The position numbers and the translations under genes were made by a program. Under the pieces are notes generated by a model that saw only the letters and a program-made list of their open reading frames with translations, had not been told where the DNA came from and did not search any database. A stretch of 23,395 nucleotides of DNA, taken from positions 1 to 23,395 of the forward strand of contig JAWCFL010000008.1 of NCBI GenBank assembly GCA_038858525.1. Reading direction: 5' to 3'. Shown one piece after another: positions 18,261 to 21,887 of this stretch. Within the stretch, counting starts at the first letter, position 1, and each line of letters starts with the position of its first letter. The DNA is from Candidatus Jordarchaeales archaeon (GTDB lineage: Archaea; Asgardarchaeota; Jordiarchaeia; Jordiarchaeales; Freyrarchaeaceae).

Positions 18261-18857
18261 TCAGAATCCTATTTCTAGCATCGTTAGGAGAACCTCGCTT
18301 GGGCGGAGTTCCAGGTCCTCTATTTCGATCTCTACTATCTTTTTCAGTCTTACATCCTCGTTGTTTACTATCTCCACTATTCCGGCGTCGGCGAGCTGCT
18401 GGCAGAGTTGCACTACTCTCCACCTTTCAAGTCCGAGTGTTCTGGCTATCGTTGTGAAGGACAAGTGCTGCCCTCTTTTGTAGGCCTCAAAAAGCATGTC
18501 GTATATTTCAGCTCGCTTCTCGTGTGAGAGGGCGAATCCGAGTTTGGCGGCTTCATCAGCAGACATGTCGTCCAGAGTTCTTAATGTTCCATCATCAACA
18601 TCGGTTAGCTTAACCTTTAGCCTTTTGTTTAAGAGAAAGACTACTCCGAGGTGGACAGCCTTAAGCACGTTGCCTAAGCTTGGCTTAGAAAGGAATCTGA
18701 GCTGGTCGTAAACGTACTTGGATGACTTCCCCGTCTTCTTCTTCATCCAGTTTGGGTTGACCACCTTCTTGTCGAATATCTCTCTCAGTATCTCCACTCT
18801 AGTGGGGTGAGCTAGGGCCTTAAAGTAGGGCACTACGCTTTTTATTGAGCGGTTCAA
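18261..18857 (-). CDS. Tandem winged-helix protein (two ArsR-like wHTH repeats)
   Basis: Repeat 1: FKALAHPTRVEILREIF...GKSSKYVYDQLRFL. Repeat 2: FALSHEKRAEIYDMLF...GLERWRVVQLCQQLADAGIV. The TTG start overlaps the upstream TGA (TTGA, 18854-18857). Confidence 0.82.
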   Translation of the reverse strand: MNRSIKSVVPYFKALAHPTRVEILREIFDKKVVNPNWMKKKTGKSSKYVYDQLRFLSKPSLGNVLKAVHLGVVFLLNKRLKVKLTDVDDGTLRTLDDMSADEAAKLGFALSHEKRAEIYDMLFEAYKRGQHLSFTTIARTLGLERWRVVQLCQQLADAGIVEIVNNEDVRLKKIVEIEIEDLELRPSEVLLTMLEIGF

Positions 18858-21388
18858 CTTTGACCCTCCTCTCCGAGTGGCTCGACAGTTAATGGACTGG
18901 ACTTCGAAAATATGAATCCCGGCTGGAGACAGTTCATCTCCCTGAGCACGCCTGCCAAGTTAGATGCTGTATACTCGTCTAGGGGGACGTCAAGTATGAG
19001 GAAGCGCTTTTTCTTCCTTCCACTCCAAGCGCCGAGAAGCCCGGAGATTAAGGAGAGCAGAGATATGAACTCCCCGTCGCTCAACGTGTGAACTTTCTGG
19101 GAGACCCTCCTGCCGAGAACAAGCCGTTCTAGAATTCCACTGTCGATGCGGAAATCTTTTATTCCTAGAATCTCTCCGACCCTTGGCAGTTCCCTTGAGA
19201 TGATTTCGAAGAAATCCTTTTTGGCGTCGTGCTCAATTCGCTTCAGGAAGTCGGCAGCTAGCTCGGCAAGTTTGAAAGACTTCTCGGCCGATACTATGCG
19301 ACTTTCCCGTTTCTCTATCTCCCTCGCCAAAGTTGAGAAGCGCTCCGCCTTTACCTCGAGCTCCCTGACTTGTTTCTCGAGGTCTTCCTTCGAAGCCTTG
19401 AGCTGGCCGACCCGTCTCCTCAGTTCTGCCGCCTCCTTTCTGACCGCGGCGTAGCTTTCCTCTGTGTACTGCTGCCTTAAATTTTCAAGCTTCCTTTCCT
19501 CCTCTTCAAGTTCCCGCTTCATTTTCGCGAACTTCTCACGTGACTCCACTAGTTGCTTCTCTGCCTCCGCTACCCTGACCCTTAGAGCATCCATGACCCG
19601 TAAACTCTCATCTCTTTCCCTTCTAGCCTTTTCAAGTTCACCTCTCAGCTTGAACCTCTCTTTTTCAAGCTCCTTGGCCACCTCGTCTAGCCCCTCAAGC
19701 TTCCTCCTGACCGCGTCCAGCCTAAGTTCATACGTTTTTATGTTCTCTTCGACCTCCTGCATCCTCCTCTTTAACTCCTCGACTTCCTGCTCCTTAGCTC
19801 TAATAGATGCGCTGAGCTCCATGTAGCTTCTCTGGAGCTCTATAGCTTTATCCATTTCCCTTAGAGCGTCATTCAGCTCCCTTTGCCTGAACTGCAACTG
19901 CCTCACTTTCCTGTCAACGTCCTCGATGTGTTCTTCAAGCTCCTTCATTTCTCCGGAGAGGTTTACCATGTCTACATGGCACAGAGGACAGAAACCCCTT
20001 CTCTCAAGCCAGTTTTTGAACTCCTTAAGGAATCTAGCCTCTGAGGAAAGAGAGCTAAGAGACGGCTTAACCGTTCTTTCGAGTTCGTCAAAAAATTTCT
20101 CCCTTAGGGCTGTAAGAGGTGAAGAGTCATTGATGAGCTCTGGGAGCTCCTTCACTCTAGATCTCAGTGACAGATATGAGTCAACGACTTTCTGGAGGGA
20201 AATGACGTCCTTGTTCAGGTTGAACTCTTTAACTCTTACCTGCTCTTTTAGGCTTTCCAGTTCAGGCTTGAGTCGGGAAATCGCCTCTACAAGCTGTTTC
20301 TCTCTTTCTATGTAGGCTCCTCTGTCCTCCCCAGCGCCTGCCACCCCTGAGAGCTCTGCCTCTATCACTTCGAGCTTCTTCGTGATCGAGAGTATTTCCT
20401 CCTCGGCTCTTCGAACTTTCTCCTCTGACTTCTTAAGGTCGTCCTTCAGCAAGGCGACATCTTTCTCAAGCTGGTTGACCCTCCTCGCGGTGTCCTCGCA
20501 AGTCTTCCTCATGAGGTCTACTTGTTCCTCTTTCACCTTGATGCTACTGGCCAAGTTCTCTAAGCTGGACTTCCTCGATTCAAGCTCATCAATCCTAGCC
20601 AAAAGAGCGGATTGCTCCTCCTCAAGAGCTCTAACTTTCACTTTAAGTTCGTTTGCTTCTTTCATCCATCTAGATGAAAGCCCTAGGAAAGTTGCCTTAA
20701 GCCGACCGGCATACTCGGATAACCCATTCCCCCTCTCAGGGAGCGAGACACCTTCCTCCGCTAAGTATTCTTCGAAGCTTACGAGCTCTCCTTCAAGCTC
20801 CTCGAAGCGTATTCTTAAACTGGACTTCAGGGAGTCAAGGTCGCTTCTAAGTTGCTCCACCAAGTCGAGGTAGGTGAGAGACCGTATCTTGTTCTTGAGT
20901 TGCTGGTAGCTCTTCTCTAAGTCCCCTCTAAAAACAAAAACGTCCTTAATGTTGTCTAGCACGGGTTCACCGGTAAATTTTTCTAGGAAGGACGTAACAT
21001 CGCCATTTTCGGCGAGCAGCTCCCCCGTTTCTGGGTTCAGCACACGGCTCCTAACACGTAGAGAGCCGTCAGGGGAGCGGGACACCTCCCTAACAATACG
21101 GATAAGCTTTAAGTCGCTGCTCGACGAGTCCGCCAGCTCGACTTCAACGACTCCGCTGTCCCCTGCAAGGTAGTCTTCAACTGCTTTGACATCGCCAGTT
21201 ATGCCAAAGAGTATGAGGCGGGCCATGGAAGTCTTACCTGCACCCATACGCCCGGAAATCTTGAATGGCTCTCTGGGCAAAAAGTACCATTTCGACGAGT
21301 CCACGAACCCGCTAAATCCACTCACCCGGAACCCATTAAGGAAAATTCCATCGCGGGTCTCTTGGGCTGCATTAAGGCTTCCGGACAA
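18854..21388 (-). CDS. Rad50/SbcC/SMC-superfamily coiled-coil protein with a zinc hook and a degenerate ABC-ATPase head
   Basis: Walker A GRMGAGKT (res 46-53, 21230-21253); about 550 aa of heptad-rich coiled coil; central CPLC (res 467-470, 19979-19990); signature-like LSDGE (res 769-773); Walker B-like FLILDVPLDE (res 796-805). TTG start with SD GAGGTG. Confidence 0.88.
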   Translation of the reverse strand: MSGSLNAAQETRDGIFLNGFRVSGFSGFVDSSKWYFLPREPFKISGRMGAGKTSMARLILFGITGDVKAVEDYLAGDSGVVEVELADSSSSDLKLIRIVREVSRSPDGSLRVRSRVLNPETGELLAENGDVTSFLEKFTGEPVLDNIKDVFVFRGDLEKSYQQLKNKIRSLTYLDLVEQLRSDLDSLKSSLRIRFEELEGELVSFEEYLAEEGVSLPERGNGLSEYAGRLKATFLGLSSRWMKEANELKVKVRALEEEQSALLARIDELESRKSSLENLASSIKVKEEQVDLMRKTCEDTARRVNQLEKDVALLKDDLKKSEEKVRRAEEEILSITKKLEVIEAELSGVAGAGEDRGAYIEREKQLVEAISRLKPELESLKEQVRVKEFNLNKDVISLQKVVDSYLSLRSRVKELPELINDSSPLTALREKFFDELERTVKPSLSSLSSEARFLKEFKNWLERRGFCPLCHVDMVNLSGEMKELEEHIEDVDRKVRQLQFRQRELNDALREMDKAIELQRSYMELSASIRAKEQEVEELKRRMQEVEENIKTYELRLDAVRRKLEGLDEVAKELEKERFKLRGELEKARRERDESLRVMDALRVRVAEAEKQLVESREKFAKMKRELEEEERKLENLRQQYTEESYAAVRKEAAELRRRVGQLKASKEDLEKQVRELEVKAERFSTLAREIEKRESRIVSAEKSFKLAELAADFLKRIEHDAKKDFFEIISRELPRVGEILGIKDFRIDSGILERLVLGRRVSQKVHTLSDGEFISLLSLISGLLGAWSGRKKKRFLILDVPLDEYTASNLAGVLREMNCLQPGFIFSKSSPLTVEPLGEEGQS

Positions 21389-21436
21389 CTATGGCACCTC
21401 AACTTCTATTAAGTTAGAAGAGACTAAACAAAACAG

Positions 21437-21460
21437 GTCCTAGGCACCACTACCTAGGAC
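21437..21460. promoter_or_regulatory. Perfect inverted repeat GTCCTAGG-N8-CCTAGGAC upstream of the SMC-like operon
   Basis: Arms at 21437-21444 and 21453-21460; lies between the minus-strand TATA TTTATATT (21510-21517) and the start at 21388. Confidence 0.55.
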
Positions 21461-21623
21461 AAACCCTCCAATTTTTCACAATTTCCGTGAGAAAAAAGAA
21501 GTAGCGAGAAATATAAATTTATCTATCGTGAAAGAAACCCGGTAAATTAAGGATGCTCAGAGACAGCTACTGAAACACGCATAGGCGACCACCGAAAAAA
21601 TAAAAAGAGTATTATCGCTAAGA

Positions 21624-21887
21624 TTGATGTGCTGGGGGGGCTCGGTAAGGTTGACGCTTAAGCTTAACGAGAAAAAATATCCTCACGATGACGAAATAGT
21701 GTGGCATGATGACAGCGTGAACGCTGCTATAAGCAAGCTTATCAAGGGAGAAGACGTGTGGGTTTGCTCAAGAAAGCTCTCACTTCTAATCAAAAGGTAC
21801 GGCAAAGAAGTTGTTGTGGAGCCTCTCATATGGAGGCGAAAAGTTATTTTTAGAGTCGCCAACGCGGACCTTGCCCGTAAAAGTTAA
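21624..21887 (+). CDS. Small hypothetical protein divergent from the SMC-like operon
   Basis: 87 aa or fewer (a TTG start at LTLKLNE is plausible); protein-like composition; fills the space between the divergent promoter region and the convergent U32 stop 6 nt away. No family recognised. Confidence 0.55.
   Translation: MMCWGGSVRLTLKLNEKKYPHDDEIVWHDDSVNAAISKLIKGEDVWVCSRKLSLLIKRYGKEVVVEPLIWRRKVIFRVANADLARKS

Follow-up and report, generated by a model that had tools for sequence, protein, structure and literature searches.

Does a Rad50-like zinc-hook protein that is encoded beside a small winged-helix protein represent a new kind of machine, or a local variant of something already known? The question is raised by a gene pair on the minus strand of a 23,395-nucleotide stretch of DNA from a Candidatus Jordarchaeales archaeon of the Asgardarchaeota (assembly GCA_038858525.1, contig JAWCFL010000008.1, positions 1 to 23,395), which we refer to as the window. 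The two genes encode proteins of 844 aa (P0001) and 198 aa (P0002). An earlier note on this DNA had proposed that they form a new system of the superfamily of SMC (structural maintenance of chromosomes) proteins. The pair is a genuine, selected, lineage-private two-gene unit. P0001 is a narrow variant of the known archaeal Mre11-less hook proteins, not a new machine type, and both the claim of a new 'system' and that of a KITE-like partner are unproven. Both open reading frames (ORFs) begin with TTG, directly preceded by a ribosome-binding site of the GGAGG/GAGGTG type. The genes are co-directional, and direct reading of the ORFs bears out the overlap of the P0002 start codon with the P0001 stop codon TGA in the tetranucleotide TTGA. 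The orthologous loci lack this overlap and have a gap of 11-12 nt.

The architecture given for P0001 in the note, a split ATP-binding cassette (ABC) head, a long coiled coil and a CPLC motif at residues 467-470, was recovered by several approaches. The Walker A motif, the CPLC hook, the signature and the Walker B stretch LILDVP (797-802) are invariant in 4 orthologues of 65-83% identity. In the AlphaFold2 (AF2) model, the stretches up to about residue 170 and from about residue 741 form beta-rich heads, and the long helices between them are broken at CPLC. According to the alignment and this model, the apex consists of CPLC in a short helix break, with no globular hinge. The best Foldseek matches of the whole chain were JetC, Rad50, Smc5/6 and MukB, and those of the heads on their own were Rad50/SbcC. 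In ESM-Atlas, both head halves neighboured AAA_23/SbcC-type proteins. The isolated N-terminal head half (N-head) scored 21 bits on Pfam AAA_23 (cut-off 27), whole P0001 matched coiled-coil families alone in Pfam, and the Pfam Rad50_zn_hook model did not match. Hidden Markov model (HMM) searches of Protein Data Bank (PDB) sequences with whole P0001 and each head half returned coiled-coil noise or nothing, and no solved Rad50.

Alignment with Rad50 revealed the state of the ATPase motifs. At the Q-loop (hhalign, N-head), Rad50 VYVRQGEIE lies opposite P0001 VFVFRGDLE, replacing Gln by R154. The DE of Walker B is DV in P0001, with V801 in place of Glu, and the signature LSGGE has become LSDGE. In the alignment of the C-terminal head half (C-head), Rad50 VVSH lies opposite IFSK at the H-loop, replacing His by K829. 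Retained are Walker A, the Asp of Walker B, the Ser of the signature and a D-loop Asp. By these alignments, the P0001 head has lost every hydrolysis residue: Gln of the Q-loop, Glu of Walker B and His of the H-loop. This loss speaks against a motor that extrudes loops or gates a nuclease. In SMC/Rad50 proteins, a mutated Walker B Glu traps the ATP-engaged state, from which we infer that P0001 is a binder or latch rather than a motor.

The four substituted motifs are themselves invariant across the orthologues. The ratio of nonsynonymous to synonymous substitution rates (dN/dS) of P0001 against the same-genus orthologue was 0.093, at a dS of about 1. By part, it was 0.135 for the N-head, 0.086 for the coil and 0.065 for the C-head, and for P0002 it was 0.081. 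Invariant substitutions together with low dN/dS indicate that the degenerate head is under selection and not decaying.

P0001 is not the only Rad50-like protein of this genome (assembly of 2.09 Mb, 92.7% complete). A canonical Rad50 of 808 aa, matched by the zinc-hook and SbcC Walker-B models of Pfam, is encoded on another contig, and a gene for a 380-aa Mre11 (Mre11_Sulfo, 280 bits) overlaps it from upstream. Canonical SMC-ScpAB is also present, at G000:C4:7298-11903 (L011, L040) and G000:C2:77553-82262 (L010, L039). One SMC gene encodes 1204 aa and scores 920 bits on SMC_prok_A, the other 1156 aa with 657 bits, and each is followed by its own ScpB. ScpA matches occurred on contig 2 only, with a ScpA-like gene beside the first SMC (1204 aa) only. 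Because canonical Mre11-Rad50 and SMC-ScpB sets are present elsewhere, P0001 is an extra, paralogue-like protein. The two SMC loci give the impression that this Asgard genome of 2.1 Mb has duplicated its SMC-ScpAB set. A third SMC-like gene (1131 aa, G000:C47:7280-10510, L012) scored 244 bits on SMC_prok_A and had an odd amino-acid composition in the head tree; it may be of an archaeal SMC5/6-related type.

By curated HMM cut-offs, P0001 falls into no described family. Its best NCBIfam match was the ASRP model NF045487, with 84 bits (cut-off 300) and the best stretch in the coiled coil. It scored 59 bits on the Rad50 model PRK03918 (cut-off 700) and 43 bits on Rad50_Sulf (cut-off 1000). For comparison, true Asgard ASRPs score 290-374 bits on NF045487 (335-374 bits in our set of 16 loci, with proteins of about 615 aa), and ordinary Rad50s 110-150 bits. 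Profile-profile comparison told more: P0001 464-817 aligned to Rad50 414-762 with 98.5% probability, the Rad50 side being the genome's own copy together with three from other Asgard archaea. CPLC fell on the Rad50 CPLC, and signature and Walker B were in register. Global hhalign placed the N-head collinear with that of the genome's own Rad50, with few gaps. In a maximum-likelihood (ML) tree of head domains, the P0001 family stood on its own long stem of 2.7 substitutions/site. Our reading of these data is that P0001 is probably a separate, fast-evolved family in the zinc-hook branch of the SMC superfamily, closest in layout to Rad50, from which it was most likely derived.

Like the genome's own Rad50, P0001 has a bipartite AAA_23-type ABC head, a CP-x-C hook at the apex and about 270-290 residues per arm, but it has no Mre11 partner gene and differs in the substituted motifs described above. 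In the note, a hook-type SMC with a tandem winged-helix partner and no adjacent Mre11 was held to fit none of the known layouts. However, Mre11-less zinc-hook SMC relatives, the ASRPs (ClsN/coalescin and Sph1/2), are already known in archaea, Asgard members included, and arcadin-4 has been proposed to be Rad50-derived (PMC9389158). ASRPs (Sulfolobus ClsN/coalescin, Halobacterium Sph1/2) share with P0001 the split head and the hook. However, they are shorter (about 615 aa), their hook is C-x-x-C without Pro, and it is out of register with that of P0001, whose N-head lacks profile similarity to theirs. Asgard ASRPs align to P0001 only across the C-terminal coil and head. Arcadin-4 (Rkd4, Thermoproteales) is likewise lineage-restricted, highly diverged, probably Rad50-derived and Mre11-free (PMC9389158), but its HMM matches P0001 in the coiled coil only, with 28 bits, and no crenactin-type operon is found at the pair. 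SMC-kleisin-KITE complexes (SMC-ScpAB, MukBEF, Smc5/6) resemble the pair in their long antiparallel coiled coil, ABC head and small neighbour with two winged helices, whereas the pair has a hook instead of a hinge, no kleisin gene and an ArsR-like partner without ScpB signal. The pair differs from known hook systems in its family, in its fully hydrolysis-dead head, in its ArsR-type tandem partner and in its very narrow distribution. Of these, the natural loss of the ATPase cycle stands out.

Neither P0002 nor the P0001 heads resembled any gene product encoded next to true and divergent ASRPs, and the AAA+ and other genes adjoining divergent ASRPs are absent beside P0001. The divergent ASRP genes themselves (L075-L078, in Asgard genomes G211, G128, G176 and G181) encode proteins of 644-669 aa that score 197-283 bits. 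In three of them (L075, L076, L078), the same strand carries, upstream, the gene for a minimal AAA+ ATPase of 238-259 aa and an unassigned gene of roughly 334-351 aa, to which L075 and L076 add a small one of about 120 aa. L077 has an upstream 211-aa ORF without family match, and L079 (G123) lacks the AAA+/ASRP layout. ASRPs were reported to have no conserved gene neighbourhood, and this recurring AAA+/ASRP operon is not mentioned in that paper (PMC9389158). Two kinds of candidate relative were discarded. The Asgard matches of about 700 aa that appeared ASRP-like were, where checked, short Rad50s coupled to Mre11-sized genes. A weak N-head match in another Asgard genome (E 3.8e-4) was an unrelated 610-aa Rad50-like gene beside a UvrD/Cas4-type gene. 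In this locus (L047, G092:C297), the Rad50-like ATPase gene lies directly 3' of a single gene whose product joins a UvrD/PcrA-type helicase C-terminus to a Cas4-like nuclease domain, and ATPase and helicase-nuclease may form a repair or defence pair.

Both proteins were found in one Asgard family only, in 5 species genomes of 2 genera (metagenome-assembled genomes, MAGs, named Jordarchaeales or Freyarchaeota), and the DNA that carries the pair comes from hot-spring metagenomes. In an index of 5.8 billion proteins, the only relatives formed 3 clusters from Jordarchaeales and Freyarchaeota MAGs. A HMMER profile search of 1.84 billion representatives returned only the P0001 family, one C-terminal fragment and coiled-coil matches, and large protein libraries held no relatives of P0002 outside the clade. 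Our survey of 400 Asgard genomes gave the same picture. P0002 was found in 4/4 relatives of the family and the P0001 N-head in 3/4 (the fourth genome is 73% complete). Neither protein occurred in the sister family (0/6), and the other 389 Asgard genomes contained no true match. In the relatives' loci, P0001 and P0002 are always together; the pairing, for which the note had proposed a test across archaea, is conserved, but confined to one family with a syntenic neighbourhood. In the sister family, homologues of the flanking small ORF and amidohydrolase lie about 0.9 kb apart with neither P0001 nor P0002 between them. It follows that gain or loss affected both genes at once, as a single event. 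A 150-aa ORF at the equivalent site of the sister family proved unrelated to P0002.

For P0002, the note had predicted tandem winged helices, and this held for the C-terminal half with confidence. Residues 96-185 superimpose on ArsR (6j05_B) with a Z score of 9.9; their top Foldseek hits were CadC and HlyU, and their top ESM-Atlas hits Asgard ArsR-type proteins. The N-terminal unit is indicated by HMM matches, a motif in register and a low-confidence model. HTH_20 matched P0002 with 27.8 bits (cut-off 27) and NF033788 with 38 bits (cut-off 55). A helix motif, ALxHxxRxEI(L), occurs at the same register in both halves, and hhalign weakly detected an internal duplication (20 columns). No match to Pfam ScpB was obtained even at E 10, and an HMM search of PDB sequences yielded coiled-coil noise or nothing. 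The fold is thus ArsR-like, with no ScpB/KITE signal, which leaves the view of P0002 as a ScpB/KITE-like subunit unsupported. P0002 is best described as a putative single-chain double ArsR-type DNA-binding protein. ArsR/SmtB regulators resemble it in the fold of residues 96-185, the HTH_20/NF033788 matches and the helix motif, but P0002 is the second gene of its operon and has two units in one chain, not a homodimer of single units. A complex prediction with the N-head (1-215), the C-head (675-844) and P0002 returned a score of 0.00, which is no verdict, neither for nor against binding.

The region upstream of P0001 was compared in 6 orthologous regions (61% mean column identity). GAGGTG before P0001 is identical in all of them, and a BRE/TATA-like element (BRE, B recognition element) is followed by a conserved block at the predicted transcription start (Table 1). 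In the window, this promoter block reads as an imperfect palindrome, TCAC-N7-GTGA. Each orthologue has it upstream, and the sister family lacks it near its homologue of the small ORF. In the genome it is single-copy, and mismatched copies are no commoner than with a control pattern; one copy with a single mismatch lies inside a coding region and was taken as chance. By analogy, autoregulated ArsR-type operons typically have a layout like this one of putative TATA element and block. In the predicted P0001 leader, a pair of CCTAGG sites separated by 8 nt (21440-21462, minus strand) could form a hairpin; among the orthologues, it is present only in the window and the same-genus genome G113.

Taken together, we tentatively favour, with a confidence that falls a little short of even, a reading of P0001 as a lineage-specific, fast-evolved zinc-hook SMC relative that acts as a non-motor DNA tether or scaffold, with P0002 as DNA-binding regulator. 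P0001 keeps the parts that nucleotide binding and dimerisation call for (Walker A, Walker B Asp, signature Ser and CPLC hook). Zinc at the hook would join two chains, whose heads would either latch stably on ATP, without turnover, or stay open. Such a protein would bridge or organise DNA rather than process ends or extrude loops. P0002, from the same transcript, would supply sequence-specific DNA binding. Most likely it would autoregulate the operon by binding the conserved block at the transcription start, and it may also target P0001 to DNA.

Several observations weigh against this interpretation. The adjacency of P0001 and P0002 is conserved only where the surroundings are fully syntenic; as this synteny takes in all neighbouring genes in every relative, adjacency counts for little as evidence of coupling. 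That P0001 dimerises and binds zinc, ATP and DNA is a prediction from its sequence, and in the AF2 model (mean predicted local distance difference test, pLDDT, 70.7) the heads are poorly resolved (pLDDT 30-80). Descent from Rad50 falls short of proof. The head-domain tree made the P0001 family, on its own long stem, weakly sister to ASRP (65/82), with a long-branch warning, and approximately unbiased (AU) tests left the groupings with Rad50 (p 0.22), SMC (p 0.14) and ASRP all unrejected. In Asgard ASRPs, moreover, LSDSE replaces LSGGE and LDK replaces DE, and because they too have LSD-x-E and a Walker B without Glu, an ASRP origin of P0001 is possible. As to the promoter block, both palindrome arms are intact in only 3/5 distinct sequences, so that 'operator' is a provisional label for it; the block could instead be an initiator, an element of the leader or a site at which some other regulator binds.

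Alternatively, P0001 and P0002 could form an obligate SMC-like holocomplex without kleisin, in which P0002 sits on the head or neck as a KITE-like subunit. Such a complex would fit the tight co-orientation, with the overlap in the window and the short gaps in the orthologues, as well as the strict co-occurrence and co-restriction of both genes, their joint absence from the sister family's locus, their similar purifying selection, and the two winged helix-turn-helix (wHTH) units of P0002, as in KITE proteins. However, co-occurrence reduces to one gain or loss event in one syntenic clade, ScpB does not match P0002 while its structural neighbours are ArsR/SmtB proteins, and P0002 is unlike the genes beside divergent ASRPs. 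An ArsR-type gene in an operon is, besides, most often the regulator of that operon. We consider the holocomplex unlikely. Rather improbable, too, is the bolder version in which the pair would be a self-contained kleisin-less SMC-type tether, with an 'EQ-like' hook ATPase latched on ATP as a minimal non-motor architecture derived from Rad50 and the single-chain, pseudo-dimeric P0002 as KITE or loader. About as small a chance is given to P0001 being a cytoskeletal or cell-shape scaffold, like arcadin-4 or haloarchaeal Sph3, with P0002 a mere transcription factor. The arcadin-4 of the crenactin operon provides a Rad50-derived, Mre11-less, lineage-specific precedent (PMC9389158), one report links SMC-like Sph proteins to cell shape (PMC10869688), loss of the hydrolysis motifs would suit a static filament or scaffold, and a gelsolin gene is located about 5 kb away in Freyarchaeota loci. 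But no gelsolin gene occupies the corresponding place in the window or in the Jordarchaeales loci, no actin, tubulin or ESCRT gene adjoins the pair in any locus, and the arcadin-4 match is confined to the coiled coil.

The note had also considered a foreign-DNA-sensing or defence module of the Lamassu/Wadjet/Rad50-like class. PADLOC matches to LmuB and JetC of up to 53 bits and a patchy, lineage-restricted distribution typical of defence genes would agree with this, but the matches are limited to the coiled coil, the hydrolysis motifs used by such systems are lost, and the pair keeps a fixed chromosomal position across two genera. The loci of the window and the relatives contain no nuclease or effector gene (LmuA, JetD), no defence island and no mobile-element neighbours, and the GC content of both genes is that of their flanks. 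A defence role is therefore very improbable. Least credible of all, and next to negligible in our estimate, is that P0001 is a decaying, functionless Rad50 duplicate. Substitution of all 4 hydrolysis motifs is what decay might produce, but every genome has an unbroken frame of 844 codons, dN/dS stands at about 0.07-0.10, constraint on the heads was judged no weaker than on the coil, none of the substituted residues varies among the orthologues, and promoter and ribosome-binding site are conserved.

The gene order around the pair is common to all relatives: U32 peptidase, small conserved ORF, P0001, P0002, Amidohydro_2 hydrolase and GH1 glycosidase. As the note had stated, no Mre11, kleisin, HerA/NurA or nuclease gene was found among the adjoining genes in the window and the relatives' loci; a distal 247-aa Metallophos protein in the relatives is not Mre11-like. 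The small ORF (21624-21887, plus strand; 72-87 aa, no family match) is divergent from P0001, with which it has a common intergenic region. The sister family, which lacks the pair, does have this ORF (4/6 genomes), adjoining the amidohydrolase homologue. The gelsolin-domain gene of the Freyarchaeota loci lies at L029:15911-16516 and L031:13273-13878. An Rfam scan of the window gave zero matches, and the 610-bp spacer 3' of P0002 is not conserved in the relatives. Contigs from 2 RNA (metatranscriptome) libraries fall within both genes, a weak hint of expression, as DNA carry-over is possible. These contigs leave the intergenic regions uncovered and cannot reveal transcript ends or operon structure. 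The coordinates of all features are listed in Table 1.

Table 1. Genes, protein motifs and promoter elements of the P0001/P0002 locus, in window coordinates.
Feature	Position	Strand	Basis
P0001 gene, 844-aa Rad50-like zinc-hook coiled-coil protein (predicted)	18854..21388	-	ORF, motif conservation, AF2 model, Foldseek, dN/dS 0.093
N-terminal ABC head half, residues 1-175, AAA_23/Rad50-type	20864..21388	-	ESM-Atlas neighbours and structure, Pfam AAA_23 21 bits, hhalign to own Rad50
Walker A GRMGAGKTS, residues 46-54, intact, invariant	21227..21253	-	Orthologue alignment
R154 at Q-loop position	20927..20929	-	N-head alignment to Rad50; invariant in orthologues
CPLC zinc-hook motif, residues 467-470, coiled-coil apex	19979..19990	-	Invariant; aligned to CPLC of own Rad50; helix break in model
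Signature LSDGE, residues 769-773 (canonical LSGGE)	19070..19084	-	Orthologue and Rad50 alignments
Walker B FLILDV, residues 796-801, Asp retained, catalytic Glu replaced by Val	18986..19003	-	Orthologue and Rad50 alignments
K829 at H-loop position	18902..18904	-	C-head alignment to Rad50; invariant in orthologues
P0002 gene, 198-aa tandem ArsR-type wHTH protein (predicted)	18261..18857	-	ORF, HMMs, fold comparison, dN/dS 0.081
First ArsR-like unit, residues ~8-80, low model confidence	18618..18836	-	NF033788 match 11-58; HTH_20 and DUF7347, two stretches each; pLDDT ~50
Second ArsR-type wHTH unit, residues 96-185, confident	18303..18572	-	VIA Z 9.9, root-mean-square deviation 2.6 over 82 residues to ArsR 6j05_B; pLDDT ~90
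Ribosome-binding site GAGGTG before P0001 TTG	21395..21400	-	Conserved upstream alignment
BRE/TATA-like element GATA..TTTATAT of operon promoter	21511..21526	-	Invariant in 6 orthologous upstream regions
Block CACGGAAATTG(T/C)GAAAAA, ~20 nt downstream of TATA, predicted transcription start	21471..21490	-	Upstream alignment
CGGAAATTG, core of promoter block	region 21471-21526

The reach of these findings is limited to one family of uncultured hot-spring Asgard archaea, and they say little on eukaryogenesis or on general archaeal chromosome biology. If our reading is true, P0001 would be a natural SMC/Rad50-type protein kept under strong selection after losing all of its hydrolysis residues, and would show what the scaffold of hook, coiled coil and head is capable of without an ATPase cycle. 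This would bear on the working of ClsN-type organisers and arcadin-type scaffolds. It would also be a second apparent case, after arcadin-4, in which Rad50 gave rise to a lineage-specific structural protein.

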